Positions 560-19,372 of a DNA stretch of 64,000 nucleotides are shown here, piece after piece; position 1 is the stretch's first letter, and every line of letters begins with the position of its first letter. Source of the DNA: Candidatus Adlerbacteria bacterium (GTDB taxonomy: Bacteria; Patescibacteriota; Minisyncoccia; Phycocordibacterales; SBAW01); the NCBI GenBank assembly GCA_028286685.1, contig JAQBRA010000005.1, forward strand, positions 80,726 to 144,725, read 5' to 3'. The position numbers were made by a program, and so were the translations under genes. The notes below the pieces were generated by a model. The model was not told the DNA's origin, ran no database searches, and worked only from the letters and a program-made list of their open reading frames with translations.

Positions 560-734
560 GGAAGAAGTACCAAGTAAGGATACTCGTGTGTGGATAACTC
601 GTCAAAAAAGGCGATTAAGTGCATAAGGTGTGGAAAAACAGGGGATAACTCTTTGTTGACAGGGTTTGGCGGCAAAAAAGCCCCTAGTTGGGACCCAATT
701 GTACTTGGGGCATCTGTTGTGTTATTGTTTCTCC
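560..734. promoter_or_regulatory. dnaA-rpmH divergent spacer with DnaA boxes (candidate oriC or dnaA autoregulatory region)
   Basis: A perfect TGTGGATAA lies at 589-597, a 1-mismatch TGTGGAAAA at 629-637 and a weaker GGGGATAAC at 641-649. It sits in the classic dnaA / rpmH-rnpA-yidC-jag context. Confidence 0.45.
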
Positions 735-869
735 ATGTCGCAAACATACCAGCCAAAAAAGCGCAAAAGGGCCCGTGCACACGGGTTCCTCAAGCGTAAT
801 GCTACTCCGGCAGGCCGCCAGATCCTTAAGCGCCGCGCCCGCCGCGGTCGTGCCCGCTTGTCGGTCTAA
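735..869 (+). CDS. rpmH: 50S ribosomal protein L34
   Basis: Internal ATG of ORF 666-869 gives MSQTYQPKKRKRARAHGFLKRNATPAGRQILKRRARRGRARLSV, the canonical 44-aa L34. Confidence 0.9.
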   Translation: MSQTYQPKKRKRARAHGFLKRNATPAGRQILKRRARRGRARLSV

Positions 870-872
870 TCC

Positions 873-1166
873 ATGCTGCCCAAGCTCTCTCGGCTTACTG
901 CCCTTGAGGTGCGCCAGGTCATAAAAGAGGGGCGCTCAGCCAGGGTTGAGGGCCTTTCTATAAAACATATAGCCGCCCCAGTTCCCAAGGCGGCCGTAGT
1001 GGTAAGCAAGAAGGTTGCTCCGGGGGCTGTCGAGCGCAATCGGCTGCGCCGCCTCATTTACAGCAGCCTCCCCTCCCCCCTCCCGAGCGCCCATATGGTA
1101 TTCTTTGTCCAATCGCCCGCAGTTGAGCCAGAGCAGGTTGCCAAACTATGTTCACAACTTTCCTAG
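873..1166 (+). CDS. rnpA: RNase P protein component
   Basis: 97-aa basic protein immediately after rpmH with the ...VVVSKKVAPGAVERNRLRRLI... motif. Conserved synteny. Confidence 0.8.
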   Translation: MLPKLSRLTALEVRQVIKEGRSARVEGLSIKHIAAPVPKAAVVVSKKVAPGAVERNRLRRLIYSSLPSPLPSAHMVFFVQSPAVEPEQVAKLCSQLS

Positions 1167-1855
1167 TACAGCCTATCTACAACCTGTTCGTCTTCCTCTT
1201 GGGCCTTATGCCTCAGGGCGATGCTGGCTTGGCCATTGTGGCTCTCACTCTCTTTATGCGCGCAGTGCTCTACCCGATCTTTACTGCCTCCATCCGCACC
1301 CAGATGGGCATGCAGGCCATGCAGCCGGAGCTCGATGCGGCTCTCGAGAAATATAAGGACGACAAGGAGGCGCTGACCCGCGAGCGCATGGCGCTCCTCA
1401 AGAAGCACAAGGTTAACCCGTTTGCGGGCTTCGGCGCGCTTATCGTGCAGCTGGTGGTGCTTGTGGCGCTTTACTTTGCGCTCTTCCGCGAGGGATTCCC
1501 GGCAATACACACTGAGCTTCTCTACAGCTTCGTAAGCGTCCCGGCGCAGGTGTCGACGGCCTTCTTTGGGCTTATGGACCTCTTGGCGCCCAAAAACATC
1601 GTGCTGGCGCTTTTGGTGGGTGCGACCCAGTACCTTGCTATACGCCTCACGCTGCGCCGTACCCCTGCCCCGACGCATCCGGACAAGGAAGCGGCTCATC
1701 GGCTGCAGTCGCAGATGATGCTCTACTTCATGCCGGCGCTTATGGCCGGAGTCTCATACTTTTTCCCGGCTGCGGTCGGCATCTACTTTGTTACCGGCAA
1801 CCTCGTATCCCTTTTCCAGGAGTGGATGCTGATGCGCGGCAAAAAGCAGAACTAA
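1148..1855 (+). CDS. yidC: Membrane protein insertase YidC/Oxa1, short form
   Basis: 235 aa with 5 hydrophobic helices. It overlaps the rnpA end and sits in the position of yidC in the rpmH-rnpA-yidC-jag block. Confidence 0.8.
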   Translation: MFTTFLVQPIYNLFVFLLGLMPQGDAGLAIVALTLFMRAVLYPIFTASIRTQMGMQAMQPELDAALEKYKDDKEALTRERMALLKKHKVNPFAGFGALIVQLVVLVALYFALFREGFPAIHTELLYSFVSVPAQVSTAFFGLMDLLAPKNIVLALLVGATQYLAIRLTLRRTPAPTHPDKEAAHRLQSQMMLYFMPALMAGVSYFFPAAVGIYFVTGNLVSLFQEWMLMRGKKQN

Positions 1856-2381: not shown

Positions 2382-3668
2382 CTAGTAGAGCCGCACTCCC
2401 CAAAGGCTCCGCTCTCCCTTTTTTATAAACAGAAGATATTTGTCGTCTTGCGAGATTGTAAGGTTCGTAATATCCGAAGCCTCTCCCCCCTCAGCGCCCC
2501 CTGGGTTTGCAAGTATGGCGGTCAGTCCGGTCGCTAGGTTAAAGACCACAATCGAGTCTATGCTCGAGCCGGTACCTTGGTGCAAGAGATCTATGTAGTT
2601 GGTCGGCAAGTACGAAAGTGATACCGCGCAATACATGACGCTCACCTGGGTCCGGCTCCAGGCGCATTTTTCCGGAATAGGGTCAAAGGATAGCGGCCGG
2701 TCGAGATTTGTTTTGGTGTCGTGCGTATAGGTTGTGCGCGCATTTTCCGTAGCGCTCTGGTATACAACCTGGCTAAAAAAGCTGTCGGCAGTGGTGGTAA
2801 GTCCTGGTGCGTACAGGATTGGCGCGGTGGCACCGGTCGTGGCATTAACGGAAAATGCTATGCCCGCGAGTCCCGTAGCTGCTTTAGAAGTAACCATAAG
2901 GGTGGACTGGGTCGGCCACGACAGCAGTACCTGGGAGAGCGGGAGAGAAAAGAGTCGTGTGGTATTAGTACCGTCTGCTCGTGCAACATAGCCGTCGACA
3001 CCGCCTGGGGCTGCCAGCAAATAAGCCAGGGAGCGTCCGTCTGGAGATGCGACAATATCGATTATGTCGTTAGGCAGGAATTGTATCCGTACCGGAGCGG
3101 GCGTGCTGGATGTGGTGCTTGCCAAGGGGAAGTTCAAGAGCACGGTCTTAATCGTAGATCCTTCGATGTACTGCATGGTGGCGCCGGCTGCGCGGGTGCG
3201 CCCGGCGTCCTGCTGCAGCTCCCACGCTACTCGCGCTACGCCCGGTATGGTCGTGTTGGAGGAGGCGCGCGCGACCGAGCCCGGGCTATCGATGGCCAAG
3301 TCGAGCACATGGCCGTTTTCCTGCTTTACGAAGCGCGCGATAGTTGTCGTGGGTCGCAGCTCCTGCATAAAGGTGGCGCCGGCAATCGGTCCGTCGCTTA
3401 TCTTAAATACTTTCTGCTGCGACACGGGCGAGGGTATCGCCTCGTTGGCGTTAGTTGATCCCACAACACTATTGGCACCCACCGAAGTCTGTGAGTTAAA
3501 CGAGCCCGTCTGCTGCGGAGTCTCCGTTGGGGTGAGTTCCGGCGTGGAGCGGAAAAAGAAGAACCACGCTACGAGCATGACAAAAAGTATTCCTCCGATA
3601 ATTTCTACTACCAGTTTCCAATTAAAATTAGACTTCATTTCCGTTTGCGCATAAGCATTGCCAGTCAT
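2382..3668 (-). CDS. Membrane-anchored PD40/TolB-like beta-propeller repeat protein (last gene of the T4SS-like operon)
   Basis: N-terminal TM helix, a Ser/Thr-rich linker, then repeats such as SPDGRSLAYLLAAPGGVDGYVARADGTNTTRLF typical of PD40 blades. Confidence 0.5.
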   Translation of the reverse strand: MTGNAYAQTEMKSNFNWKLVVEIIGGILFVMLVAWFFFFRSTPELTPTETPQQTGSFNSQTSVGANSVVGSTNANEAIPSPVSQQKVFKISDGPIAGATFMQELRPTTTIARFVKQENGHVLDLAIDSPGSVARASSNTTIPGVARVAWELQQDAGRTRAAGATMQYIEGSTIKTVLLNFPLASTTSSTPAPVRIQFLPNDIIDIVASPDGRSLAYLLAAPGGVDGYVARADGTNTTRLFSLPLSQVLLSWPTQSTLMVTSKAATGLAGIAFSVNATTGATAPILYAPGLTTTADSFFSQVVYQSATENARTTYTHDTKTNLDRPLSFDPIPEKCAWSRTQVSVMYCAVSLSYLPTNYIDLLHQGTGSSIDSIVVFNLATGLTAILANPGGAEGGEASDITNLTISQDDKYLLFIKKGERSLWGVRLY

Positions 3669-4512
3669 TGCTGGTTGGATAATGTACGGTGCAGATTTGG
3701 GTGCCGCTGCTCTGATTCTGGCAATCGTTAACCTTTTTATTGTTTATTGCCTCTGCAGTTTGCTGGGGGGTGATTTGTTGTATCGCGTTCTGCCCGGAAG
3801 TGATCGAGCTTAAGTTGAGCTTGAAGGTAACCAATTCAGGATTGATAGTATTGAGTATAAGGTACGAAGACATAAGGAGAACGATGGCCCACATGGCGCC
3901 GCGGATGCGTCCCAATGCCTTAGTCTTGTTGCCCACCACATCAGAAAACATGTAGGTAAGCGCGCCTAAGACGAGCATAACGACTGCAAGTGTGGCCCCT
4001 GCCCCCAAGAGGAGCTGGAACGAGCTTGTTATCAGGCTTTGGAAGGAACCCTGCCCCTGATTGGGGCCGTAGATATTAGGGAGTCCTGGCAAGGGCTCGA
4101 GCGGGATATAGGTGCATTTTCCGCCCTGACAAAAAGCATTGGGATTTATTGGTTGCGTTTGTGTTTGAGTGGTGGGAGTGGTTGCACTTGGGTTTTTTAT
4201 GTCCGTAAGCGAACCGGTGTAGCCAGTTTCTTTGGCACACTGGGAAAAATGTGTTTGTTCCGAGATAAGCAACCCCCCGGTCTTCATGCACTCAGTAACT
4301 TTTTGAGCTGTCGATGCTGAGTTGCTGGGCGTTGGGACGCATCCCCCTTTTTCCCAAAACCAAAATCCTCCAGTACTCGAGTAGGTCTGTCCATCGGCAC
4401 ACGTATAGTCGGTGGCTGCAGGGGTTGGGCTAATGAATGTTGGATTAAACTGAGCCTGGGCAATATGGCCCGCAGGCAAAAGAAGCAAGGCGAGTATTAA
4501 AAATTTTTTCAT
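3628..4512 (-). CDS. Secreted VirB2/TrbC-like two-helix hairpin protein with Cys-rich ectodomains (candidate pilin-like subunit)
   Basis: Signal peptide MKKFLILALLLLPAGHIAQA. A Cys-containing N-domain is followed by two hydrophobic helices (LLLGAGATLAVVMLVLGALTYMF and AMWAIVLLMSSYLILNTI) separated by a short basic loop, as in VirB2/TrbC. A Cys-rich C-terminal tail follows. Confidence 0.35.
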   Translation of the reverse strand: MKKFLILALLLLPAGHIAQAQFNPTFISPTPAATDYTCADGQTYSSTGGFWFWEKGGCVPTPSNSASTAQKVTECMKTGGLLISEQTHFSQCAKETGYTGSLTDIKNPSATTPTTQTQTQPINPNAFCQGGKCTYIPLEPLPGLPNIYGPNQGQGSFQSLITSSFQLLLGAGATLAVVMLVLGALTYMFSDVVGNKTKALGRIRGAMWAIVLLMSSYLILNTINPELVTFKLNLSSITSGQNAIQQITPQQTAEAINNKKVNDCQNQSSGTQICTVHYPTSNDWQCLCANGNEV

Positions 4513-5531
4513 ATACCGAAGAAGGATGCGGTTGCCGAGCCGGGCTGACCGAAAAGTATGCCCAGTACGGTTTGTGCTGCTTGTACCAGCTGGTTTTGGT
4601 TGTTGTTTTGGAGAGATACTTCAAGTGCGGCTGAGCCCGTGCCCGTGCCCGTCTGGCGCAAGGTAAGTATGCCGTGGCTTGAGTCCGGGCCCGCAATTCC
4701 CTCGCCGCTAAGCGTCCACTCATATTGTACTGCCCCGCCGATAACCGATACGCGGGAAAAGTTGTAGGGCTGCGCCGCTATGGTGATTTCCTTAGTACTC
4801 AGCGACAGGGAGCTCGGCAGCGCCAAGTCGTACAAGACGCCCCGCAAGGAGTCTCGCTCGTACAGCACTACTTGCGGTTGGCTCACGGGTATAACTACTC
4901 CCCCGCGGCCCACCAGACTCGTGCCAAAGTAGACATCAACGGCAATAGTTTCCTGCGCCTGCAGCTGATCCCCGTCAAAAGAAAGGGTGTTGCGGCCGAG
5001 TCCGGACTGTGCGGGCAGCGGCTCGTCGTTGCGGGTCCATTGGTACGAAAGGCTCGAAGCGGCAACCTGTGCGTTGTTTATTATGACCATGGGGAATGCC
5101 GCCACTTTAAGCGGAGAACCTGCCGAGTAGAGGGGTTTCCCTCGGTAGAGAGGCGGTGCCCAAGTATCTGCCTCCCATACCAAATTGACCAATGAAGGAC
5201 GAAAAACAAAATCCTTGCCGTATGTGCCTTCAGTCGGAGACTGTATGTCAACGCGTACCTTGGTTATACTGCCCACTGCGCCCGTTATAAAAGAGTACGT
5301 GCGAAGTCCTGCGCCCGACTGTACTACTTGGCCGTCCTTCTTCCAGATAATGGTAGCGTTGCCTAAAAAAGTGCCCAGGCCTTGGGCCTCTATGGTTACC
5401 TGCTGGTTTGGTCCTGGCACATCTGGGGTAATAACGTATTGCACCGGGTCGGGTGCGACCTGGGCATGGGCCCAAGGAGTCGCGAGTAGGAAGCCAGAGG
5501 CTATGGATAGTTTAAGCAGCTTTTTGTACAT
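4509..5531 (-). CDS. Secreted beta-rich repeat protein, hypothetical (operon member)
   Basis: An internal ATG at 5531 gives MYKKLLKLSIASGFLLATPWAHAQ, a signal peptide. It is 340 aa with repeated Gly/Thr-rich beta-like segments and a hydrophobic C-terminus. It overlaps the downstream gene by 4 nt. Confidence 0.5.
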   Translation of the reverse strand: MYKKLLKLSIASGFLLATPWAHAQVAPDPVQYVITPDVPGPNQQVTIEAQGLGTFLGNATIIWKKDGQVVQSGAGLRTYSFITGAVGSITKVRVDIQSPTEGTYGKDFVFRPSLVNLVWEADTWAPPLYRGKPLYSAGSPLKVAAFPMVIINNAQVAASSLSYQWTRNDEPLPAQSGLGRNTLSFDGDQLQAQETIAVDVYFGTSLVGRGGVVIPVSQPQVVLYERDSLRGVLYDLALPSSLSLSTKEITIAAQPYNFSRVSVIGGAVQYEWTLSGEGIAGPDSSHGILTLRQTGTGTGSAALEVSLQNNNQNQLVQAAQTVLGILFGQPGSATASFFGI

Positions 5532-6195
5532 AAGATGGTCTCTCGGGAGCCCGGTTGTCGTTCGCCGCCGCGCGTATGCCGTCAAAATTTCTAGTCTGGA
5601 GCGGAATGTGGACGGGGTTTGACGGAGTTGCACTTGCAGTGTGAGTCGCCATATACACAATGGGTTTTACTGCGGCAAGGGCTGTTCCGACTCCTGGTAT
5701 TATAGATGCGACATTGAGTGCCGTCATAAGTTTGGAACGTCCTGTTCCGCCGGATGCTTGCGTTTGGTTGTACGTCTTTATACAACGGTGTACTAATATG
5801 CTCCATCCGGGTACAAAGGCGTTAACCCCCGGCAACATCTCACTACTAAAACCCATCACCACAGCCATAAGAGAAAACCGCCCGGACACCCACAGCATAA
5901 GAATAAGCAGGACGCCAAAGGTACAGCTTATGGCAATGTCTATCGCCATGCCTGCAGGAATGGCGATAGCACTGAGTCCTGCGCCAACGATCCCGCCACC
6001 CACTGCGCACTTAAAGCCTTCCAGCAGTCCGGAAATGACGCCGCTTGTGGCGTTGTAGCAGAAATAGGCTCCGGTCGCTGCGCCCGTCAGGCCGCCTCCC
6101 ATTGGCGTCATAAACTGGAACGCCAGTAGGGTTATAAAGAATATGAACTGCAGAAGATCGATAACTCCGGCGAATAGGCGCAACGCGAGATTCAT
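5512..6195 (-). CDS. Polytopic Gly-rich integral membrane protein, hypothetical (operon member)
   Basis: 227 aa with at least 5 hydrophobic helices rich in small residues. It lies 6 nt downstream of the VirB4 ORF. Confidence 0.5.
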   Translation of the reverse strand: MNLALRLFAGVIDLLQFIFFITLLAFQFMTPMGGGLTGAATGAYFCYNATSGVISGLLEGFKCAVGGGIVGAGLSAIAIPAGMAIDIAISCTFGVLLILMLWVSGRFSLMAVVMGFSSEMLPGVNAFVPGWSILVHRCIKTYNQTQASGGTGRSKLMTALNVASIIPGVGTALAAVKPIVYMATHTASATPSNPVHIPLQTRNFDGIRAAANDNRAPERPSYVQKAA

Positions 6196-6201
6196 GTACC
6201 C

Positions 6202-8016
6202 CTATTGTACAGCGGCTTCCGCCTTTTGCTTGCGCAATGCTAACACCTGGGAGGGGTCCGAGGTAATGATCTGGTCCTCGGTATATGAAGCGATAACTTT
6301 TATAGCCACGTGCTTGAGTCCCGCGAAGAAGATCCCCTCTCCCACGTCCGATTCCAACAGGAGGTATTTCTCTTCCTCCGATAGGTTAAAGGTCTTTTGC
6401 AGGCTGTCGATAGTGGTTGGCGACTGCTTGAGCAGTATCTGGATCGAGGAGTTGGAGATCATGGGGAGTCCGTACGGCGACTTCAGGAAGTCATCCACGT
6501 CCTGGGTAATGGTAGCTAAGCCTAGGTAGTACTTGCGGCCGCGCTTGGCCATGCCGTAGAGGAACGATGCTGTGTCTTCCGACTTCATCATCCACCAGGC
6601 CTCGTCGATTACCAAAAGGCGCTTCTTGAGGTTCTTGCGGACCGTGTTCCAGATGTAGTGGGTAATGAGGTACATTGCCACGGGCTTGAGGTCGTCCTCC
6701 ATGTCGCGGACGGAAAAGACCACGAACTTCTTGTTCATGTCGACGTTGGTCGGCTGGTTGATGAAGCCGGACCAGGTCCCCTTGGTGTACTTGGAGAGGC
6801 GCTGCACCAGAGACTCCGAGCCCTGCATGCCCGAGAGTACCAGCTCGAAGTCCGACAGCAGGGGTGGTTCGATCTCGGCAAAGTTGGAATCTATAGTTAT
6901 GTCCTTGAGGGCGTACGTCTCTGAAATGGCCTTGTCGATGATGGCGTCTTCTTCCGGAGAGAGGCCGCCGAGCATGATGCGGAACATACCCACCAGCGCC
7001 ACGATGTTGGAGCGCAGGATGTCGGCTGCCGCTTCGTCCTCGCGGGGCGGGGCCAGGTCAAACGGGTTTATGTGGTGCTCGGAATTGAGCGAGATGTTGA
7101 AGTAGCGCCCCCCTACCGCTTGGGCCAGGAACTCGTACTCGCGCTCGGGGTCGATCACTATTACTTCCGTATCGAACATGAGCGTGCGCAATATCTCAAG
7201 CTTGGTCATGTAGGACTTGCCGGAGCCCGACTTGGCAAAAATTACCGAGTTGTAGTTCTCAAGCGAGAAGCGGTCGAAGAGCACCAGGGAGGCATTGTGT
7301 CGGTTAACCCCGTAGAGGATGCCCTTGTCGGACGTAAGGTCAAAGGATATGAACGGGAATATGGAGGACAGCGGCGAGGAGTTGAGCTTGGAATTAACGT
7401 TGAGCTCATCGTGGCCTAAGGGCAGCACCGATTTGAAGCCCTGTTCCTGCTGGAAGAGAGCCGGCTTTACGTATACCAGGCGGCTCTCGAGCATGGATTT
7501 GATCTCGCTTTCGGCCTTGTCGAGTTCTTCGACTGTTGTGCCGTAGATAGTAATGTAAACGCCGACATCGAACAGTTTTTCCTGAGCCTGCTGCAGCTGG
7601 TCGCGCAGGGACTCGAGGTCTTGGTAGGCGGTGTCGAGTATCGGGTCGCGCACCAGCCCCTTCTCCTCGCGGGCCATGATCTGGCTCTGCACCTCGGCCA
7701 CTTTCTTCTGGAACTTCTTGAGTATGTCGGCGGAGTCTATCGGGTGGATGAATACCGATATGTCGAGCACGCGGTCGAGGTTGATGATGGGCGCAAACCA
7801 CGAGTCGGTAAGGACGCGCGGGTAGGACATTACAAAGAAAGTACGCGCAATCTTGTCGCCGAGGTTTATCTCGCGCGGCGTAATCTTGAGCGCCGAGGGA
7901 GCGATGACGTCCTGGAGCTCGAGCACGCCCTGTTTATAAATCTGCTCGGGCATGATCGGCGCTACTGGGGCGCTTTGCGGAGACTCTTTAGATTTGAATA
8001 GGTCAAGGAATGCCAT
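6202..8016 (-). CDS. virB4: VirB4/TraE/CagE-family conjugal-transfer ATPase (ATPase body)
   Basis: Walker A FAKSGSGKSY, Walker B RLLVIDEAWWMM, and the ...FFVMSYPRVLTDSWFAPIINLD... region typical of VirB4. 604 aa. Confidence 0.85.
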   Translation of the reverse strand: MAFLDLFKSKESPQSAPVAPIMPEQIYKQGVLELQDVIAPSALKITPREINLGDKIARTFFVMSYPRVLTDSWFAPIINLDRVLDISVFIHPIDSADILKKFQKKVAEVQSQIMAREEKGLVRDPILDTAYQDLESLRDQLQQAQEKLFDVGVYITIYGTTVEELDKAESEIKSMLESRLVYVKPALFQQEQGFKSVLPLGHDELNVNSKLNSSPLSSIFPFISFDLTSDKGILYGVNRHNASLVLFDRFSLENYNSVIFAKSGSGKSYMTKLEILRTLMFDTEVIVIDPEREYEFLAQAVGGRYFNISLNSEHHINPFDLAPPREDEAAADILRSNIVALVGMFRIMLGGLSPEEDAIIDKAISETYALKDITIDSNFAEIEPPLLSDFELVLSGMQGSESLVQRLSKYTKGTWSGFINQPTNVDMNKKFVVFSVRDMEDDLKPVAMYLITHYIWNTVRKNLKKRLLVIDEAWWMMKSEDTASFLYGMAKRGRKYYLGLATITQDVDDFLKSPYGLPMISNSSIQILLKQSPTTIDSLQKTFNLSEEEKYLLLESDVGEGIFFAGLKHVAIKVIASYTEDQIITSDPSQVLALRKQKAEAAVQ

Positions 8017-8025
8017 ATAGATAGA

Positions 8026-8676
8026 TTACTGCTGCATTTGGGTTACCTGGAGCGGCTTCTCCAGCTCGCCCGGGTTGAAGAGCTTGTAGAAGAGTTCTAT
8101 GACCTCCTCGGTGCCCAGCTGCACGATGCGGACCCCGGTGCGCACCAAGCCTTGTTCGATGACCGATACCCGCTGCTCGAGCTGGGTACGGTACTGCTGG
8201 AACTGCTCGTCGGTGAGGGTGGCAGATGCCGAGGTGCCGCCCGAGAGCATAGAGCTGAAGCCGCCGCGCGAGGCCAAAGCCGGGTCGTACGGCACAACGA
8301 TAAAGAAGTTCTTGGACATTATGTTAGCCCGTTCAGTAAAGTCCTTAATAAAGGCTATGTACTCGCGTATCTGGATGCGCATCAGGTCATCAAGCTCCTT
8401 CTGGTAGCGGTCTTCCAAAAGAGCAATGTAGGGGCGGATATCAAGGGCGCGGCTCTGGACGAAAAATTGCGCCGTAAACTCCAGCGAGTTGAGGAAGTTC
8501 TGAAACTGTCCGATGACGGCCTGCTGCTCGTCTTGGGACTTGAGCGCCAGGTTGATAGAGGAAGCCATAAGGAGCGCGCGCAGGCTGCCGTCTTTTAGTA
8601 TCACAATGCCGTTGCGCACCTCCTTTATGGGGACGAAGTCCTGCGTGGCTTTGGCTTGGGCGGCGTTAGTTGCCAT
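8026..8676 (-). CDS. VirB4 N-terminal segment, in the same frame as ORF 6202-8016 and separated from it by one TAA plus 9 nt
   Basis: 216 aa with ...VPIKEVRNGIVILKDGSLRALL..., resembling the N-terminal motif of VirB4-type ATPases. 216 + 604 aa adds up to the usual VirB4 length. Frames are identical: the stop sits at 8028-8026 and the next ATG at 8016-8014. Confidence 0.6.
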   Translation of the reverse strand: MATNAAQAKATQDFVPIKEVRNGIVILKDGSLRALLMASSINLALKSQDEQQAVIGQFQNFLNSLEFTAQFFVQSRALDIRPYIALLEDRYQKELDDLMRIQIREYIAFIKDFTERANIMSKNFFIVVPYDPALASRGGFSSMLSGGTSASATLTDEQFQQYRTQLEQRVSVIEQGLVRTGVRIVQLGTEEVIELFYKLFNPGELEKPLQVTQMQQ

Positions 8677-8696: not shown

Positions 8697-9143
8697 CTAT
8701 ATTTGGAATCCGCTGCGCGGCGCCGCATCTCCTGCCTGATTGTGGTCTTTTATATTGAGCGACCAGGAGAGGTCCTTGAGCCTGCTTTGAGAGAGTCTGG
8801 GCACTATGAGCGTTGAAGGATCTGCAGCTTTTACTGCTGTGGCTTCCGGTGCAGAAGTCGAGTCGCGCTGCTTCCACAAGTAAAGCTTGTGTCCCAGGGC
8901 GTAGCTGAAGGCGTGCTCAGCGGCCGATATAAGCGGCCTACCGTTGACCTTGTAAAAGGCAAACGCGGTTCCGATGCCTACAGAAAGGCCTACCAAGGGC
9001 AGGGCAAGTATGAGCGGCAGGAGCGTAAAGAAGATGAGCGAGAGCCCTGCTCCGCCGGCCAGGTAGATAAACTGCCGCAGTGTCAGCGGACCAAATATCT
9101 TGTCTTCAACCTCGATAAACTGGGGTACTTGGTACTGAGCCAT
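8697..9143 (-). CDS. PrgI/VirB3-like small two-TM protein
   Basis: MAQYQVPQFIEVEDKIFGPLTLRQFIYLAGGAGLSLIFFTLLPLILALPLVGLSVGIG... This looks like the N-terminal motif and double-TM layout of PrgI-family (VirB3-like) proteins from Gram-positive-type T4SS. Confidence 0.5.
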   Translation of the reverse strand: MAQYQVPQFIEVEDKIFGPLTLRQFIYLAGGAGLSLIFFTLLPLILALPLVGLSVGIGTAFAFYKVNGRPLISAAEHAFSYALGHKLYLWKQRDSTSAPEATAVKAADPSTLIVPRLSQSRLKDLSWSLNIKDHNQAGDAAPRSGFQI

Positions 9144-9168: not shown

Positions 9169-9858
9169 TTACTCCACAGGTTCGCGATACGGGTCAGCTT
9201 TGTAATTCTGGGGCAAAGTAGGGTCCGTAGCGGGTGAAGCGGCTGGCGCCACAGCCGGAGAGGGAGACGAGGGCGCAATAGGAGTGCTTACCTTTTTCTC
9301 CGAGAGCATTACCTCGGCGGCCATAAGATCAGGCACTACCGCAGGCTTGGGGCCTACGCTGATAGGGGTTAGTAAGGGCGCAACTGCGACAACTTCCACA
9401 GGAGCTTCGGGGGCTGCCGGTTCCAAGACCGGCTTTGCGGCTGAAGGCATCACGACCTGGGGAGTAGAGGCGGGCTCAGGTTGAGGCACAGATACTGCTG
9501 CCGGCGCGGACGCGGGCAATTCCTCCCCTCCCCTTTTTTTCTCGGCCCACGCCTTCATAGATTCGCGTATCGGCATGAAGATGTCATCTGCAACATCTGA
9601 TGCTATTGCGTCCGCCTGAGCCGGCGTTACAAGCAAAGTGGCTACAAGTTGGTCCACGAACTCCTTTGGCTCTGCAAATCCGAGCATGATTAGTATCGTT
9701 TCGTCCTCCAGGTCCCCTATCTGGTCTATATGAAGTCCCTGCTTCTGGCCGATGGCTTGCACTTTTTTACTCAGATCAACCGACTGAATGGCGTCGCGCA
9801 CGTCTTGAGGGAGTTCGGCAAGTCTCTTTTGTACCTGTGCTTCTAAGTTCTGTTCCAT
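9169..9858 (-). CDS. Hypothetical protein with Pro/Ala-rich C-terminal half (operon member)
   Basis: 229 aa with an acidic helical N-half and a C-half of PAxxP repeats. It is tightly packed in the operon. Confidence 0.45.
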   Translation of the reverse strand: MEQNLEAQVQKRLAELPQDVRDAIQSVDLSKKVQAIGQKQGLHIDQIGDLEDETILIMLGFAEPKEFVDQLVATLLVTPAQADAIASDVADDIFMPIRESMKAWAEKKRGGEELPASAPAAVSVPQPEPASTPQVVMPSAAKPVLEPAAPEAPVEVVAVAPLLTPISVGPKPAVVPDLMAAEVMLSEKKVSTPIAPSSPSPAVAPAASPATDPTLPQNYKADPYREPVE

Positions 9859-9880: not shown

Positions 9881-12253
9881 TTATTTATTTTCTGCTGGCT
9901 TTCCGTTTCTTGTTTTCTTGATTACGTCCCGTATGGGATTTTTTTTATCTCTGAAGTTAGTTAAGTTTTTGTTTAGCTGTGCGATAGGTTTAAGACTCTC
10001 CTCAAGTTTGGCAGGCATTTCCCCCATAGTTTCTATCAGCTTTCCTACTTGTTCCGCAAGATTTTTCGTTTGTGAATCATGCGGAGTGGATTGAGATGGC
10101 TGAGTTTTCGGCTGATCTTTGGTTTTATCAGTAGGGATAGTAGTAGAGGCTGATGATGCGGGATTTTGCGCCTGTGAGGGATTAGGGATAGTGGTCAGCG
10201 GAGCAGGATGAGAAGAAGTTTCGCCTGAGCCGCCAAGGTTTTTAATAAGATTAAGGATACGCGTTTTGTCGTCCTTAGAGTCGCGCATTTTCGCGGCAGC
10301 CTCCTTATCTCCTCTAGAAATTAAGCCTGGTATGCCTGAACTTCCGATTCCGCCCATATTCTGCCAGCTTAGTTTGTCCATCTTGCCGATAAATTCCTTT
10401 GAGTAGTCTCCTCCCGCCAACTTCTTGGCTTTCTTTATGACCTCTGTCCTATTTATGATCTCACTATAAGCTTTTTTCTTTGCCTTAACTTCCTCTGTAG
10501 TTGCTTCTCCGTTCTTATGGTCTTCCTGTGCATCGGCATATTCTTTTGCCGCTTTTGCTAAGGCATCTTTATCTCCTGAAGACAATCCTCCAAGAGCGTT
10601 CTTGTACGCCTGATCGAGTTCGTAGTCGGACGGTTTTAGGGCTCTTGCCTGCTTCTCGCGCAAGGCAGTCCTTGTTGCGACCGCTCCGGCGTAGCCATCT
10701 TTGCCTCCTGCTTCGGCAGTGTCTATGCCCAACTTCCCAAGCCCGGTACGCACGCCCGGAGCGGCGCGCATGTCAAATGAGCTTTTTCCGATGCCTGTTA
10801 AGGCGCTCTGGAGTAGCCTGCCGGGAGCATACTGAGCGCCTGCGCGTATGGCAGAGCTTTGAGAAAGTGCGTAACCTCCGGCACCAAAGGTGTTGCGAGC
10901 TAAGGCACCAGCACTGCCGAAGGCTGCGCTGGTGCCTGCACGGCCCGCCCATCCGGTAACGGTGTGCGCAACGCCCGCGCCCTGCACGCCGATATATTCA
11001 GATGCCTTGAGCGCGATATAAAGCATAGCCACCACAAAACCGAGCCGGATGCCTACGTTGGCAACCTGGCTAGCTATAAAGGTAAAGCCGTTCAGGTTAT
11101 TAGCTGAGTTGTTAAGGTCGGTCGCCAGGCCGGCCAATATGCCGTTTTTTGTTCCTAACCCAGTCATGACCGTGTTTATAAACAGGAATATAAAGAGGAA
11201 TGCCGCCGGATAAAAGGTATGAGATATAAGCTCGTGCTGCCACCGGTCATACCAGCTGGACACCGAGTCTTTAGGCACTGCCTTGGCGATAAACGCCAGA
11301 GGCGCCGCGATAATAAGGAACCAGAGCACCACTATGCGCACCAAAAACTTGATCCCGACCGCCAAGAACATGGCCGCAAGGATAAAATAGCAGGCACCGA
11401 CCATTATGTAGAGGAAGGACAGGATGATGAATTTCGTGCCAAACCCGCTTGCTTTGGCAAACTGCTGGAAGTTCTTGTCGGCAAAAAGCTCCTCTATACT
11501 AAGCGTCTTCATGATGCCTGCAGTAAGGTCTTTGGTGTGCTCAAAGACGCCATTAGGGCTGAGTTTGCTTGCGATGCCGGCTGCAGCGTTAGCGAGCGTT
11601 CCTGTGTTTGCGCTGGTTTCGCTAACAGTCGACAACATAGTGGGCGCATCTATGGCGTTATAAAACTGCACGGCTAAGATATTGCCTGCGTCGATGACCA
11701 CGCGGGTCAAAAAGAAGCTAAAGTTGATAATGAGCGCGATAAATATCACTCCCGCCAAGAGCCGTATGGTGCCCGGGGTCTCCGCCTGAAACATGATCAT
11801 AAAGGCGATGTAAACCAAGATGAGGATAAAGCCCATGTTGGCCAGGTCGCGTGCGGTGCCCCAGCCTGATGAGAGGAAGTCGAGCGCATAAGCCGAGCTA
11901 TTAAGCGAGAGCGATACTGTCATGTCAAATATAAACCCGCCGACGTAGGCTAGTCCGCTGCCAAGGCCTACCGTAAAGACATAGACAATGTTGGCCAGAC
12001 AGTTGGACATGTCTGAAATTTCGCACTTAAGTCCGTCGCCGGTGTCTTGGCCGGCCGGTGTCTTGCTGGTAGGCGGGGTACCGCTTGCGGTGCCGATTTG
12101 TTGAGCGTGCGCAGACGGAATTGTCAGGACCTGGAAAAAGGGAGAAAAGGTTATCGTCGCTAGTACCAATGCAAAACCCGTCTTGCTGGCGTACTGGAGA
12201 AGTTTTTTTGTAAGATTGGTAGGCACGTAAGTTAGGCGCCAAGGGCGCGGCAC
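9881..12253 (-). CDS. VirB6/TrbL-like polytopic membrane protein with long hydrophilic C-terminal extension
   Basis: 790 aa with a signal-like N-terminus and at least 8 hydrophobic helices over the first 450 aa. The tail is rich in Gly/Ala/Lys and ends in a Ser/Thr/Pro/Gln-rich region. Its size and topology resemble PrgH/TcpH/VirB6. The listed start is GTG. Confidence 0.5.
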   Translation of the reverse strand: MPRPWRLTYVPTNLTKKLLQYASKTGFALVLATITFSPFFQVLTIPSAHAQQIGTASGTPPTSKTPAGQDTGDGLKCEISDMSNCLANIVYVFTVGLGSGLAYVGGFIFDMTVSLSLNSSAYALDFLSSGWGTARDLANMGFILILVYIAFMIMFQAETPGTIRLLAGVIFIALIINFSFFLTRVVIDAGNILAVQFYNAIDAPTMLSTVSETSANTGTLANAAAGIASKLSPNGVFEHTKDLTAGIMKTLSIEELFADKNFQQFAKASGFGTKFIILSFLYIMVGACYFILAAMFLAVGIKFLVRIVVLWFLIIAAPLAFIAKAVPKDSVSSWYDRWQHELISHTFYPAAFLFIFLFINTVMTGLGTKNGILAGLATDLNNSANNLNGFTFIASQVANVGIRLGFVVAMLYIALKASEYIGVQGAGVAHTVTGWAGRAGTSAAFGSAGALARNTFGAGGYALSQSSAIRAGAQYAPGRLLQSALTGIGKSSFDMRAAPGVRTGLGKLGIDTAEAGGKDGYAGAVATRTALREKQARALKPSDYELDQAYKNALGGLSSGDKDALAKAAKEYADAQEDHKNGEATTEEVKAKKKAYSEIINRTEVIKKAKKLAGGDYSKEFIGKMDKLSWQNMGGIGSSGIPGLISRGDKEAAAKMRDSKDDKTRILNLIKNLGGSGETSSHPAPLTTIPNPSQAQNPASSASTTIPTDKTKDQPKTQPSQSTPHDSQTKNLAEQVGKLIETMGEMPAKLEESLKPIAQLNKNLTNFRDKKNPIRDVIKKTRNGKPAENK

Positions 12254-14145
12254 TCTGCAAGCGAAGCGTTGGTTTGTTGGTTGCGGGCGGCAAGTTCTGT
12301 CTGGAGTGTGGTGCGATTCTGCTGCGCAGTGGTTATGTCTGCCTGGGTTAGGAAAGATCCCTGGGCTGCGGCAGACGAAATGGCGGAAGCGGCGGCCGAA
12401 ACCTCCTCGGGCGTTGTTGCAAACATAACCTGCGATTGCATATTTTGTATAAGGCCCAGAGAGGCATTTGATCGGGTTATTTCATCGTTGTAGGCAGTAA
12501 TGCGGACCTCGAGTGCGGTCTGGGCCGAGTCCAGGCTCGCTGCCTTGTCGGCGGCGCTCGCCTGCTGCGATGAGTTGAGCGCGGTTGATGAGGCGGCGGT
12601 GCTCCAGCAGTTAAAGGCCATATTAAGCCCCGACTGCGCACCTTGGATATCGGCAATGCTCCCCTGCTCTACGTTGGCATACTGTCCCGCATAGCCCAGA
12701 TAGCCTTGGAGCTCGCTCAAAAGCCCCTGTGCCTGCGCGCTTGCTGCCTGGTCTATGGCGGGAGTAAGTGGGTTGGTAACGCCAAGCGAATTGCCGAGCC
12801 CGCCGTACAGCGTCTTTATCATCACTTGGTTGGTAAGCGCCCTGATAATGTCATTTATGTTCTGCGACAGGTTAAGTCCCTGTATAGGCGAGGCGAGACT
12901 GGTGTTAAGTGATTGCTGTATGACTTCGCCCGGGGTGGTTACCTTGCAATTACCCTTCGCCACGCTCTCTCCCTTGCTTGCGTCGCACTTCTGGAGCGAT
13001 ATGAACCCGCCCGGAGAGACATTGCGGTTGGCATTGGCCTGCGCATTATTTACGTAGTTACTAAGCTGTCCGTTTATGGAAGAATAAGCGCCAAACTGGT
13101 TATTTGCCGGCGAGGTGGTCATCTGAAGCATCCTACCCCATCCATTTATGTTATTAGTAACTTTACTAAGGGTGCAAGCGGCCCCATTGGCATTATTTCG
13201 GTTAGCGTAGCTCTGCGCCACGGCGATCTTTATCTGCGGCGCAAACGGCGAGCAGAGGAAGGAAAGTGCGGAGCTTTTGAGAAACTCCCCTGCCGCCTGG
13301 TCGGCAACGTTCGCAAAGTACTGGTTAAAGTTGGTAACAAAAGACGGCTTTCCGTTGAAGCCCGAGTTTATCCAGGTAACGATGCTCCGGGTTATCTGGT
13401 CTATGGCAGCCTGCGCAATAGTCTTAACAAGGCACTCTTCGACGCTCTTAAACTTAGTGTTATTGAGCTTTGCGCTCGAATTAAAGTCGAATACGACCAC
13501 GTAGGGTCCGGCTCCAGCCAAGGATTTGGGGCCGTCCGTGGTTGCCTGCAAGTTTCCCGATATCTCGTATGCCAAGTACTGCGCAAGGCACCCGGCTGCT
13601 GCAAGCCCTAGCACAAGCCCTGAGGTACCCAAGCCTGCCGCCTGTGGCGTAGTTGATATAAGAGGAGTGCCGCTAATGCCAGCGGTAGAGTTTATCTGGT
13701 TTATTTCCGCGGCAGTAAAGGCGCGCTCGGTTACGGTCGTGTTGATACCTCCTCCTACCCATGCGGCGCTTTGATTGCCGCCTTGAGAGGAGTTTGCAGA
13801 GCCTGTCTGCGAGTCCGAGTTTGATCCCGAACTTCCCTGCGACCCGGTGTCTATCCCGCTACCGGTTATGTCGATACCATCCAAGCCTCCGGTGTCGGTG
13901 CCTGGGATAGTGGAGGGTGTGTTGCTCGGGTCTCCTGATCCAAGCGAGCCGCTCGGGCCGCGGTCACTCGAGGTGCCAAAGCCGCTTGGGTTTTGGGTGG
14001 TAACAGCCGGTTCCCGGTTAAGGAGCCAGAACCACAATATGCCGAGCAGCGCCAAGAAGAGCAGTGCCCCTCCGATGATGAATATGATCTTCCTGGTCAT
14101 GACAATAGCAGGGCGCCTTAGGATGCGGATAGGAACGTGTCCCAT
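12232..14145 (-). CDS. Membrane-anchored large extracellular protein, Ser/Gly/Thr/Asn/Gln-rich (operon member)
   Basis: 637 aa with an N-terminal TM helix (KIIFIIGGALLFLALLGILWFWLL), a low-complexity S/G/T linker, then a large domain with scattered Cys. No catalytic motif was recognised. An alternative start lies at 14100. Confidence 0.5.
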   Translation of the reverse strand: MGHVPIRILRRPAIVMTRKIIFIIGGALLFLALLGILWFWLLNREPAVTTQNPSGFGTSSDRGPSGSLGSGDPSNTPSTIPGTDTGGLDGIDITGSGIDTGSQGSSGSNSDSQTGSANSSQGGNQSAAWVGGGINTTVTERAFTAAEINQINSTAGISGTPLISTTPQAAGLGTSGLVLGLAAAGCLAQYLAYEISGNLQATTDGPKSLAGAGPYVVVFDFNSSAKLNNTKFKSVEECLVKTIAQAAIDQITRSIVTWINSGFNGKPSFVTNFNQYFANVADQAAGEFLKSSALSFLCSPFAPQIKIAVAQSYANRNNANGAACTLSKVTNNINGWGRMLQMTTSPANNQFGAYSSINGQLSNYVNNAQANANRNVSPGGFISLQKCDASKGESVAKGNCKVTTPGEVIQQSLNTSLASPIQGLNLSQNINDIIRALTNQVMIKTLYGGLGNSLGVTNPLTPAIDQAASAQAQGLLSELQGYLGYAGQYANVEQGSIADIQGAQSGLNMAFNCWSTAASSTALNSSQQASAADKAASLDSAQTALEVRITAYNDEITRSNASLGLIQNMQSQVMFATTPEEVSAAASAISSAAAQGSFLTQADITTAQQNRTTLQTELAARNQQTNASLAECRALGA

Positions 14146-14990
14146 GCCGCGCCCGGTTCGTCCTTAGTAAAAAGTATACCGCCCTTCTTAAGAGCCTCGG
14201 CTATGTTTGTTAATATACGCCCTGCTTCGCCCATAAGCGCCTGGTATTTTTGCAGCGCGGCGACTCCCCGCAGCGGATCGTCTATCGCTTTGCTCATATC
14301 CGGATACGCGGCGGCAATTCCGTAAATGTTCTGCACCACCTGAGAATGGAGGGGCGAGAGCGTTCTAGGTACTTCCAAGGCAGCTAACTCGTCGGCAATG
14401 GCTTTATACTCGCGTCCGATAGGCGCCAGCGCCGCCAATTGGGCAGTATCAGCAGCGCCAGCCATTGCTACGTAAGTTGCTTCGGAGCTAGCTTTTGGAT
14501 GTCCGGCAAAAACTTGCATAACGGCGTTGCCGTAGGCACGCAGCGTAAGATCGGATGATTCGACGAGGGTGAGAGTGGGAGCTTTCGGTGCAATTTGTGA
14601 AGCGTTAATGCGCCCAATTGCCTCGGCGACGATGCTATCTTGGGTCGGAATATCGTCACCGAGGCCTTGTACTCCGGCGTTCGTCAGCCGTACCAGGAGA
14701 CTGCGCCCTATAGAGTCGGTCAAATTGTCGCTTTGAGCGTCTGCAATCAAGGTTTCTATTGTGCCTTGGCTGGGCGTGTCGGGGAGCGATATGCCGCTTT
14801 CTGCCTGTATTTGGGCCAATGCCCGCTCCCATTCGTCGTCCTGGAAGGCATTTTCTGCACTGGCAAGCACTGCCGGTGCGTTTTTTGAGGAGGCGTAGTA
14901 TTGCGCGGCGGCTACCGCTCCCCCGGATATGGCGAGGGCGCCCACAACGACCATGAATTGAGCAGAAGGAAGATACGTACGGACACTCAT
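14118..14990 (-). CDS. N-terminally anchored periplasmic/extracellular protein (first gene of operon; VirB8-like role possible)
   Basis: 290 aa with a TM helix at residues 10-30 followed by an Ala-rich soluble domain. AAGGA sits 4 nt before the ATG at 14990. Confidence 0.4.
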   Translation of the reverse strand: MSVRTYLPSAQFMVVVGALAISGGAVAAAQYYASSKNAPAVLASAENAFQDDEWERALAQIQAESGISLPDTPSQGTIETLIADAQSDNLTDSIGRSLLVRLTNAGVQGLGDDIPTQDSIVAEAIGRINASQIAPKAPTLTLVESSDLTLRAYGNAVMQVFAGHPKASSEATYVAMAGAADTAQLAALAPIGREYKAIADELAALEVPRTLSPLHSQVVQNIYGIAAAYPDMSKAIDDPLRGVAALQKYQALMGEAGRILTNIAEALKKGGILFTKDEPGAAWDTFLSAS

Positions 14991-15014: not shown

Positions 15015-15389
15015 ATGCATAACCTTCTCCGTGTTCTAGTAGTCTTCAGTATTATCGGTGCTTTTACGGTTCCTTTTTCTGCTTCTGCAATCGCTTTTCT
15101 TCCTTTTGGAGGCCGGGTCGTTACTCCTATTCCCTGCGTGTCAGGAGAAGGACCGTCTTGGTTTATCACTATAGTTCCCTTCGGTCTGCCGGGCACTATT
15201 CCGGTAACATTTATTTGGACTCCTCTTACCCTAACCAGTACGATCCCCCCTATTCCGTCAAAGCCGCCCTATCGCCCTGGGCAGCAATTACTGGGCACGT
15301 ATATTCCAGGAGGATTTCAAATCTGTATGGTAGGCAAGGTGCCCCTGACTGGCTTGAGGATGTTTACGGTAAATACGGAACTCTTTTAA
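15015..15389 (+). CDS. Small secreted Pro/Thr-rich protein, hypothetical
   Basis: An internal ATG at 15015 gives MHNLLRVLVVFSIIGAFTVPFSASA, a signal peptide. 124 aa. It is convergent with rsmA, with a 4-nt overlap. Confidence 0.4.
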   Translation: MHNLLRVLVVFSIIGAFTVPFSASAIAFLPFGGRVVTPIPCVSGEGPSWFITIVPFGLPGTIPVTFIWTPLTLTSTIPPIPSKPPYRPGQQLLGTYIPGGFQICMVGKVPLTGLRMFTVNTELF

Positions 15390-16135
15390 CTAGCCGCCAG
15401 CGCGAGCCAAGCTTCAAGCAGCACATCCTCGGCGCGCGCCTTGGCGGGTATGCCGGCTTCTTCTAGGTGTTGCATATAGCCAGCGCCCAGCAGTTCTTTT
15501 AGGTTGCTCGCGAGCAGTTTTCTTTTCTGCCCGAAGCCTGTGCGCAGGAGTTCAAAAAACCGCTCCTCGTCCTTTTCGCTTTTAAAATTGCTACGGGAAA
15601 TGCCTGAAATAAGCAGGATAGCCGAGTCGACTTTGGGCGGCGGCACGAACGCGCCCGCCGGCACGGTCTTTATATAGGAAGGGGTGCCGTACGCTTTTAT
15701 TGAAAGAGAGAGAATGCTTTCTTTTTTGCTGCGCGCGATGCGCTCGGCGACTTCCTTCTGTATTAAGAAAACTAAAGATGATGGCTGGTTAATGCCCGAT
15801 AGAAACTTTTTAAACAGCGCGCCGGTAATGTAGTACGGGATGTTGCCGACTACTTTGTAGTTCTTAAACGCGGGCTCGTACTCCAGGGCGTCGCCTTCTA
15901 TAACCTCGAACTTTTCTCTGGAGAATTTTTCTTCCAGTAAATTTATGAGCCGGGAATCTTTTTCAAGCGCGACTACTTTTGCTCCGCGCTCAAGCAGTAC
16001 TTGGGTCAGTGCGCCTTCGCCGGGACCAATCTCGAGCACCATGTCCCCTTTTACAAGATTGGCCGCATCAGCCACCAAGTTAAGGTAGTGCTTATTGTGC
16101 AAAAAATGCTGGCCGAGTGATTTTTTCTTCTCCAT
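15386..16135 (-). CDS. rsmA: 16S rRNA (adenine1518/1519-N6)-dimethyltransferase
   Basis: SLGQHFL, VLEIGPGEGALT and VVGNIPYYIT motifs. Confidence 0.85.
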   Translation of the reverse strand: MEKKKSLGQHFLHNKHYLNLVADAANLVKGDMVLEIGPGEGALTQVLLERGAKVVALEKDSRLINLLEEKFSREKFEVIEGDALEYEPAFKNYKVVGNIPYYITGALFKKFLSGINQPSSLVFLIQKEVAERIARSKKESILSLSIKAYGTPSYIKTVPAGAFVPPPKVDSAILLISGISRSNFKSEKDEERFFELLRTGFGQKRKLLASNLKELLGAGYMQHLEEAGIPAKARAEDVLLEAWLALAAS

Positions 16136-18241: not shown

Positions 18242-19372
18242 TTGATAGTGAACCCAGTACAACCTGCTTTGTCACAAAAAAAACTCACTCCTTCTCCTCG
18301 GGACGCTCGGTCCTTTGCGGGGAAGCTCAAAAAAGCCGTTGTGTACTTGCTGCTCGCTAGCGGGTCATCTTCGGGGCTATTGGTCCCCACTGCCGCCTCG
18401 GCCGGCTTCTTTTCCATATCTACTCTCTTAGAGAGGATAACGCCGCAGGCAAGTGCTGCGGCCCCGTCCCAGAACTCCCAGAATGTTCCCCTGTTGGCCC
18501 CCGCTACCAATATCGACCCTAATCCGTCGATTGGCGGCGGTGATGTAAGCGTAGTGGGAGGCTCGGCCCTCATGGCCCAGGAAGGCCCTTCCGGTACCGC
18601 AGCCGATATCGCGGCTCGGCCCCAGTCCTCGGCAGTAAGCGTATATACTGTCCATGCCGGCGACAGCCTCGGCGCCATTGCACAGATGTTTGGCGTGTCA
18701 GTTAACACGATCAAGTGGGCCAACGACCTAAAGAGCGGCACGATCCATGAGGGGCAGGAGCTGGTGATCCTTCCGGTCAGCGGCGTGCGCCACAAGGTCC
18801 AGAAGGGCGACACGGTCGCTTCGCTCGCCAAGAAGTATCAGGCGCAAGAAGAAGAGATCCGTGAGCATAACGACATCGTGGGCAATCTTGTGGTCGGCCA
18901 GGAACTTCTGATACCTAACGGGACACTCGCTTCGGCGCCTGCCGCCAAGCCCGCAGCTGCAGTCAAGAAAACCGGATCGGGCGCGGGCGCCTCGGTTGCC
19001 GCAGGCGGTCCGGCAATTTCCGGCTACTACGGCTGGCCGGTAGCGGGCGGCATCATTACGCAGGGCATCCACGGATACAACGGTATTGATATCGGCGCAC
19101 CCAACGGAACTACTATATTCGCTGCAGCCGCCGGTACGGTCGTGGTCGCTATCTCCAACGGCGGCTACAACGGCGGCTACGGCAACTATGTGGTGGTCCA
19201 GCATGCAAACGGCACGCAGACGCTGTACGCGCACATGAGCCGCGTGCTTGCCACCCAGGGAGCGGCAGTCGGCAAGGGCGAGGTCATCGGTCTCGTCGGC
19301 AGCACTGGACGCTCGACCGGCAACCACTTGCACTTCGAGGTTCGCGGCGCCGCCAACCCGTTCGCGAGATAA
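18242..19372 (+). CDS. LysM-domain M23 family metallopeptidase
   Basis: Two LysM repeats (YTVHAGDSLGAIAQMFGVSVNTIKWAN and HKVQKGDTVASLAKKYQAQEEEI) and a C-terminal M23 core GIDIGAPNGTTIFAAAAGTVV...HLHFEV. The listed start is TTG, so the true start is uncertain. Confidence 0.8.
   Translation: MIVNPVQPALSQKKLTPSPRDARSFAGKLKKAVVYLLLASGSSSGLLVPTAASAGFFSISTLLERITPQASAAAPSQNSQNVPLLAPATNIDPNPSIGGGDVSVVGGSALMAQEGPSGTAADIAARPQSSAVSVYTVHAGDSLGAIAQMFGVSVNTIKWANDLKSGTIHEGQELVILPVSGVRHKVQKGDTVASLAKKYQAQEEEIREHNDIVGNLVVGQELLIPNGTLASAPAAKPAAAVKKTGSGAGASVAAGGPAISGYYGWPVAGGIITQGIHGYNGIDIGAPNGTTIFAAAAGTVVVAISNGGYNGGYGNYVVVQHANGTQTLYAHMSRVLATQGAAVGKGEVIGLVGSTGRSTGNHLHFEVRGAANPFAR

Follow-up and report, generated by a model that had tools for sequence, protein, structure and literature searches.

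The apparent in-frame stop in a VirB4 ATPase of Candidatus Adlerbacteria is very probably an ordinary boundary between a trsD-like gene and a short virB4

Introduction

In the chromosomal type IV secretion systems (T4SSs) of Patescibacteria, the report of Quiñonero-Coronel et al. (2025, Microb Genom, PMC12102498) presents TrsD as the most abundant component, with 2,272 homologues, 1,664 of them associated with virB4. It describes the protein as a remote homologue of the N-terminal portion of VirB4, assigns it no function, and states, citing Wang et al. 2023 (Cell), that the homologue in Southlakia epibionticum is essential. The same report places virB4 of Paceibacteria near dnaA/dnaN, rnpA, ksgA and rpmH and notes that VirB3-VirB4 fusions exist in some systems. 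Here we analyze a 64-kb window (the whole stretch of DNA studied) from a Candidatus Adlerbacteria metagenome-assembled genome (MAG), in which a TAA codon separates a 216-amino-acid (aa) open reading frame (ORF) from a 604-aa VirB4 ATPase in the same frame. Very probably this "stop inside VirB4" is the ordinary boundary of two conserved genes, a trsD-like gene and a short virB4, in the arrangement that is standard in Patescibacteria T4SSs. Coordinates are window positions throughout, and both genes lie on the minus strand.

The window resembles the published chromosomal systems in its phylum, in its components (TrsD, VirB4, PrgI/VirB3 and a VirB2-like pilin), in a trsD that adjoins virB4, and in its rpmH, rnpA and ksgA context. 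Set beside what that report describes, it differs in nothing substantive and is one more example. TrsD goes unmentioned in the FEMS T4SS nomenclature review (PMC12857230).

A comparable layout occurs on the staphylococcal plasmids pGO1/pSK41 (MPF_FATA, pGO1 subclass). In pSK41 a VirB3-like ORF, trsD (227 aa, TrsD/TraD family conjugative transfer protein), a 14-nucleotide (nt) gap and a 672-aa DUF87 ATPase follow one another, so that the order of a VirB3-like gene, a TrsD of about 220 aa, a short spacer and an ATPase of 600–670 aa is shared with the window. With 23% identity (E 5e-33), the window ATPase and the pSK41 ATPase TrsE can be aligned from their first residue, both beginning MAFL..., and their break points are therefore equivalent. 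The relationship is nevertheless very distant, as the TrsD proteins lack BLASTP similarity and the ATPases share only that 23%. In addition, the conjugative plasmid pSK41 has both a relaxase and a coupling protein, whereas in Patescibacteria the locus lies on the chromosome near the origin, and a relaxase is, by published accounts, usually absent.

Other systems have VirB4 in one piece, including TrwK of R388, Agrobacterium VirB4, the CD1110 family of Firmicutes integrative and conjugative elements, and TraC of F. These proteins contain the same two modules in the same order, whereas in the window the modules are two polypeptides. The fold predicted for the 216-aa protein matches TrwK, the ATPase body matches CD1110 above the cutoff, and the two parts together have a canonical length, 823 aa. 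The split arrangement is thus already published for Patescibacteria and has long been annotated on staphylococcal plasmids.

The junction in the window and in relatives

The junction consists of the following elements.

8676..8026, minus strand: trsD-like gene, 216-aa ORF, stop included
8028..8026, minus strand: trsD stop codon TAA, followed by T (TAAT), read from the sequence
8025..8017, minus strand: intergenic spacer tctatctat between trsD and virB4, 9 nt, with no Shine-Dalgarno (SD) motif
8016..6202, minus strand: virB4, short-form ATPase, 604 aa, ATG at 8016..8014

Read on the minus strand, the sequence across the junction is ...cag cag TAA tct atc tat ATG gca..., and a single-frame translation of 8676..6202 encounters two stops only, at codon 217 and at the end. 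Both ORFs share one frame, and 216 + 3 + 604 gives 823 aa, the canonical VirB4 length. On re-reading and translation, the geometry described in an earlier note (the position of the TAA, the stop-free 9-nt spacer, the common frame and the length sum) proved correct. That note had also called the spacer repeat compositionally odd. Within the window tctatctat, which reads atagataga on the plus strand, has a single occurrence and amounts to two copies of the 4-mer tcta plus a t in an AT-rich spacer; relatives carry other short AT-rich strings at this position, and we discarded it as a signal.

We fetched 80 loci from different Patescibacteria species and measured their junctions by tblastn. Seventy-six loci had both genes and, with the window, gave 77 junctions, across which amino-acid identity was 58–89% for the N-terminal part and 74–95% for the ATPase. 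The two genes are separate in all 77. The trsD stop codon is TAA in 61, TAG in 15 and TGA in one, and every ATPase begins with a conserved ATG that leads into a MALLDFLK-like peptide. Gaps from stop to ATG range from 1 to 493 nt, with a median of 5; they are at most 13 nt in 53 junctions and 1–5 nt in 39, and the form TAAtATG occurs in 11 loci. Relative frames 0, +1 and +2 are represented by 21, 36 and 20 junctions. Since two same-strand neighbors share a frame one time in three, and since the in-frame class (21/77, 27%) shows no enrichment (binomial p = 0.28 against 1/3), the shared frame of trsD and virB4 in this genome is a coincidence. A further locus, L043, provides a 78th junction (TAActATG, frame +2). 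Its ATPase match begins at residue 106 because of an N-run inside virB4 (~4960-4970), and the junction itself is normal.

Six loci have a whole gene between trsD and virB4, namely prgI in one and an ORF of the 23S ribosomal RNA (rRNA) intervening-sequence-protein (IVP) family in five.

L046, ~2072-2568: 140-aa PrgI-family gene between trsD and virB4, not upstream of trsD (PF12666, E 1.5e-12)
L044, ~4685-5088: 23S_rRNA_IVP-family ORF, Pfam-confirmed
L059 and L074, ~4613-5063: identical 23S_rRNA_IVP-family ORF, Pfam-confirmed
L075, ~4634-5048: 23S_rRNA_IVP-like ORF, by sequence resemblance
L076, ~4613-5100: 23S_rRNA_IVP-like ORF, by sequence resemblance

The five IVP-type ORFs encode 118–127 aa and are placed exactly between the two genes. 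The L044 ORF and the L059/L074 ORF match PF05635 (23S-rRNA-intervening-sequence-protein / four-helix-bundle) with E 4e-39 and 5e-26, respectively. This suggests repeated insertion of a gene of this family at the trsD/virB4 junction.

These counts bear directly on whether the TAA at 8028..8026 could be a site of programmed stop-codon readthrough or recoding that yields an 823-aa, one-piece VirB4. The shared frame, the stop-free spacer, the canonical length of the fused product and the existence of a naturally fused relative (P0233, described below) speak for such a mechanism. However, in-frame junctions are below the one-third expected by chance, the frames differ in 56 junctions, and six contain a whole gene between the two; a fused product is therefore no conserved requirement. 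Neither frame nor stop context is conserved across relatives, all three stop codons are used at the junction, and across the 77 junctions we found no conserved spacer sequence and no conserved downstream sequence or structure. The stop context TAAT is the most efficient termination tetranucleotide in E. coli, and in the window TAA ends 30 of 47 ORFs, more than any other stop. Readthrough is accordingly very improbable here. A change of genetic code that reassigns TAA was also considered and rejected, given this ordinary use of TAA and the TAG and TGA codons that substitute for it at the junctions of relatives.

A stand-alone protein family and one natural fusion

In a database search the 216-aa protein had 7,764 homologues, of which the best 120 (80–100% identity) are all 216–226 aa long, come from independent assemblies (NCBI, JGI, ENA and Logan) and carry labels such as Adlerbacteria, Paceibacteria and Nomurabacteria. 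An identical 216-aa sequence has been deposited as a coding sequence in its own right (JWL87_603, Candidatus Adlerbacteria MAG). When representatives of clusters built at 50% identity were searched exhaustively, 2,360 clusters passed E <= 0.001. The best 150 representatives reach as low as 35% identity and consist of 149 stand-alone proteins of 138–443 aa and a single protein of 797 aa. Some of the longer homologues, of 300–440 aa (P0171, P0193, P0158 and others), have low-complexity C-terminal tails of 150–230 aa rich in Pro, Ala, Gln and Thr.

The 797-aa protein, P0233, matches the 216-aa protein over residues 4–218 (41% identity) and the ATPase over residues 226–795 (56%). It appears to be a natural TrsD-VirB4 fusion, the sole one in the best 150 representatives, and may alternatively be an artifact of gene calling or assembly. 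If genuine, it would indicate by Rosetta-stone logic that the TrsD part and the ATPase part work together. P0233 lacks the N-terminal peptide of ~29 residues that characterizes the separate ATPases.

8016..7930, minus strand: ATPase N-terminal peptide in the window; equivalent in all loci; L081, 26584..

This peptide (M-A/G/S-L/I/F-L/F-D-F-L-K-x-K) is conserved in 77/77 junctions, and the start of pSK41 TrsE (MAFLKKKK) echoes it. The peptide is absent from the fused protein and may act in docking to TrsD.

An in-frame stop between the halves of a usually single protein is also the pattern left by a nonsense mutation, and a recent pseudogenisation of a formerly one-piece virB4 would look like this locus in isolation. 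The split is ancient, however, as it occurs in every junction compared and in stand-alone homologues down to 35% identity. Both ORFs are intact and conserved, with Walker A and B present in the ATPase, and the ATPase has its own conserved start methionine and N-terminal peptide, which a nonsense mutation would not be expected to create. The essentiality of the TrsD homologue reported for S. epibionticum (PMC12102498) argues in the same direction, and we regard a recent loss of function as barely credible. A stop created by a sequencing or assembly error deserves thought in any MAG. Here, independent assemblies of different samples and projects, from four sources, yield 216–226-aa proteins with the same end, 76 genomes of other species have a stop there, and the identical protein has been deposited separately; we give an error next to no weight.

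Taken across relatives, the sequences establish trsD and virB4 as separate genes, each with its own start and stop and under purifying selection across the class. The headline of the earlier note, a VirB4 interrupted by an in-frame TAA, is refuted by 77 junctions with variable gaps, frames and stop codons, a conserved start methionine and sometimes an intervening gene. The note had offered four explanations; the genuinely split ATPase stands, and readthrough or recoding, recent pseudogenisation and sequencing error fall with the same 77 junctions. It had also proposed comparing orthologs for two conserved independent genes with their own ribosome-binding sites. That comparison, now run, finds the two genes independent and conserved in all 77 junctions, and the matter of ribosome-binding sites is moot in a genome without SD use (see below).

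Identity of the two proteins

Both window proteins were searched against NCBIfam profiles. The 604-aa ORF matches the CD1110-family VirB4 model (NF045971) with 395 bits, above the cutoff of 325, over positions 184–733 of 752, and contains the Pfam domains P-loop_TraG, AAA_10 and DUF87. It belongs to the CD1110 family by score, and both nucleotide-binding motifs are intact.

7227..7213, minus strand: Walker A GSGKS, aa 264-268, intact
6618..6601, minus strand: Walker B LLVIDE, aa 467-472, intact

The 604-aa ORF leaves the N-terminal positions 1–183 of the CD1110 model uncovered; positions 2–116 are matched by the separate 216-aa ORF. Given this complementary coverage, the two ORFs are complementary pieces of a canonical VirB4. 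The N-terminal regions of five VirB4/TrbE models are hit by the 216-aa protein.

Mbov_0397 family: positions 100-233 of 894
CD1110 family: positions 2-116 of 752
VirB4_CagE: positions 4-182 of 792
TrbE model PRK13873: positions 9-169 of 815
TrbE model PRK13830: positions 14-186 of 818

The matches to VirB4_CagE and CD1110 bear out the earlier suggestion, made from a sequence motif, that the 216-aa product corresponds to a VirB4 N-terminus. The protein also matches the NCBIfam TrsD/TraD model (NF041427, curated cutoff 200 bits) over positions 13–199 of 201 (E 4.9e-10, 39.6 bits), and is a profile-detectable TrsD homologue as PMC12102498 defines one. By its profile score, it is a remote relative of the staphylococcal/enterococcal TrsD/TraD subfamily and not a member in the narrow sense. 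A Pfam scan of the protein with a local library gave nothing at E <= 0.01, and a relaxed threshold gave a weak match to TraC_F_IV (E 0.022). The database's precomputed label for it, PF26593, was not reproduced with the local Pfam copy.

Predicted structure points the same way. An AlphaFold2 model built from a 76-sequence alignment reached a mean predicted local distance difference test score (pLDDT) of 83.1 and a predicted template modelling score (pTM) of 0.70. In a Foldseek search against the PDB, its top 14 matches were TrwK/VirB4 chains from cryo-electron microscopy of the R388 T4SS (probability 1.00, TMq 0.46–0.57), and the remaining fold matches were noise, with a probability of at most 0.16. 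Sequence searches of the PDB, with the single protein and with the 76-sequence profile, gave no match. On profile coordinates and predicted fold, the 216-aa protein is best described as a stand-alone homologue of the VirB4 N-terminal domain.

Expression of the two genes

An SD-like motif precedes 7 of 47 long ORFs in the window, which equals the random background of 14.8%; SD sites are unused in this genome. We therefore rejected the missing SD before the ATPase as an argument against its independent translation. A different signal is enriched. Of 49 starts, 10 have a −10-like hexamer upstream, TA[TC]A[CA]T (mostly TATACT), compared with a frequency of 1.1% in random 30-mers, and in 9 of the 10 cases its last base is 7–9 nt before the start.

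Example starts: minus strand, 9143, 9858, 14990 and 16135; plus strand, 30913, 50176, 54909 and 57990

This pattern points to widespread leaderless mRNAs in this genome.

Given spacers of a few nt and the absence of SD sites, termination-reinitiation is the most likely mode of translation for the ATPase. Ribosomes on a prgI-trsD-virB4 mRNA would finish trsD at its stop codon and begin again at the adjoining ATG, which would give roughly matched amounts of TrsD and ATPase. This mRNA may itself be leaderless, as a TATACT box ends 8 nt before the prgI ATG.

With the two genes still separate, the ATPase could also be made from its own leaderless transcript that starts at or next to the ATG at 8016. 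A TAATCT box overlaps the trsD stop at −12..−7 from this ATG, a distance that matches the TATACT-type boxes found 7–9 nt before many starts in this SD-less genome. The box is a weak −10-like element, however, that fits only the loose form TAnnnT and not the enriched TA[TC]A[CA]T, and the 39 relatives with gaps of 1–5 nt have coding sequence at its position. We consider such a transcript unlikely, though a more serious contender than any explanation based on a single interrupted gene; it would alter a detail of expression only, and not the identity of the feature.

Genomic context

The surrounding genes are those expected of an origin-proximal Patescibacteria T4SS locus.

9143..8697, minus strand: prgI (VirB3-like), 148 aa, 20 nt upstream of trsD (Pfam PrgI PF12666, E 2.9e-10)
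4512..3628, minus strand: T4SS pilin-domain protein, 294 aa (Pfam T4SS_pilin PF18895, 27.5 bits, cutoff 26.6)
666..869, plus strand: rpmH
873..1166, plus strand: rnpA
1148..1855, plus strand: yidC
16135..15386, minus strand: ksgA
18033..16135, minus strand: UvrD-like helicase
18242..19372: LysM + Peptidase_M23 protein

The gene order prgI-trsD-virB4, with a pilin-domain ORF nearby, shows the trsD-virB4 adjacency known from Patescibacteria, and rpmH, rnpA, yidC and ksgA near the locus place it in an origin-proximal chromosomal context that fits the published Paceibacteria synteny. The LysM + Peptidase_M23 protein could be a VirB1-type cell-wall hydrolase of the T4SS.

Pfam gave no match for seven ORFs that flank prgI-trsD-virB4.

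9881..12253, 12232..14145, 14118..14990, 9169..9858, 5512..6195, 4509..5660 and 2382..3668, minus strand: Pfam-negative flanking ORFs

These are probably lineage-specific T4SS components. One Pfam-negative ORF, of 790 aa, has long hydrophobic stretches in its N-terminal half and is a VirB6-like candidate. Another, directly downstream of virB4, encodes 227 aa and is Gly/Ala-rich and hydrophobic.

Discussion

VirB4 function in these bacteria is divided between two cistrons, trsD, which encodes a homologue of the N-terminal domain of ~215 aa, and virB4, which encodes the body of ~600 aa with Walker A and B. We propose that TrsD binds the ATPase and PrgI/VirB3 non-covalently at the membrane, in trans, and would replace the covalent N-terminal domain that in TrwK contacts VirB3 and anchors the ATPase to the inner-membrane complex. 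The two genes are adjacent and conserved together, one natural fusion exists and the fold matches TrwK, all of which speaks indirectly for an association of this kind.

Several observations weigh against parts of this interpretation. The score of the 216-aa protein against NF041427 falls well short of the curated cutoff, and BLASTP against pSK41 TrsD gave nothing (E 3.5), so its link to staphylococcal TrsD is at the remote profile level only. The Foldseek output comes without the aligned TrwK residues, and the N-terminal placement derives from the profile coordinates. We infer, rather than observe, both the binding of TrsD to the ATPase and the way the ATPase is translated. Gaps exceed 13 nt in 24 of the 77 junctions, and coupling by termination-reinitiation is therefore not universal; in this genome the weak TAATCT box could instead give a separate leaderless virB4 transcript.

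A bolder scenario, which we hold to be doubtful, can be built on the break point. Because the Patescibacteria ATPase and pSK41 TrsE are broken at the same point, the fission of VirB4 might be a single ancient event common to pGO1-type monoderm systems and the Patescibacteria T4SS. In that case, detachment of the domain might represent a functional innovation and not a neutral split, with the domain serving, for example, as an adaptor, exchangeable or regulated, that controls docking of the ATPase hexamer on PrgI/VirB3. As a separate part of the same scenario, rare accidental TAA readthrough might leave traces of one-piece VirB4 in the ~27% of genomes with an in-frame junction, this one included.

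Compared with what PMC12102498 says of TrsD, the adjacent VirB4 without its N-terminal portion, the break point shared with pSK41 TrsE and the natural fusion are small additions, which refine a published observation and do not amount to a discovery. For annotation the result is a clean negative: an apparent in-frame stop in an essential secretion ATPase needs no flag and no "repair". Current interest in Patescibacteria T4SSs stems from the single species tested, whose epibiotic lifestyle requires the system. For these systems, the complementary model coverage, the TrsE break point, the fused relative and the fold match to TrwK together provide a concrete hypothesis, namely that TrsD may be the VirB4 N-terminal domain acting in trans.

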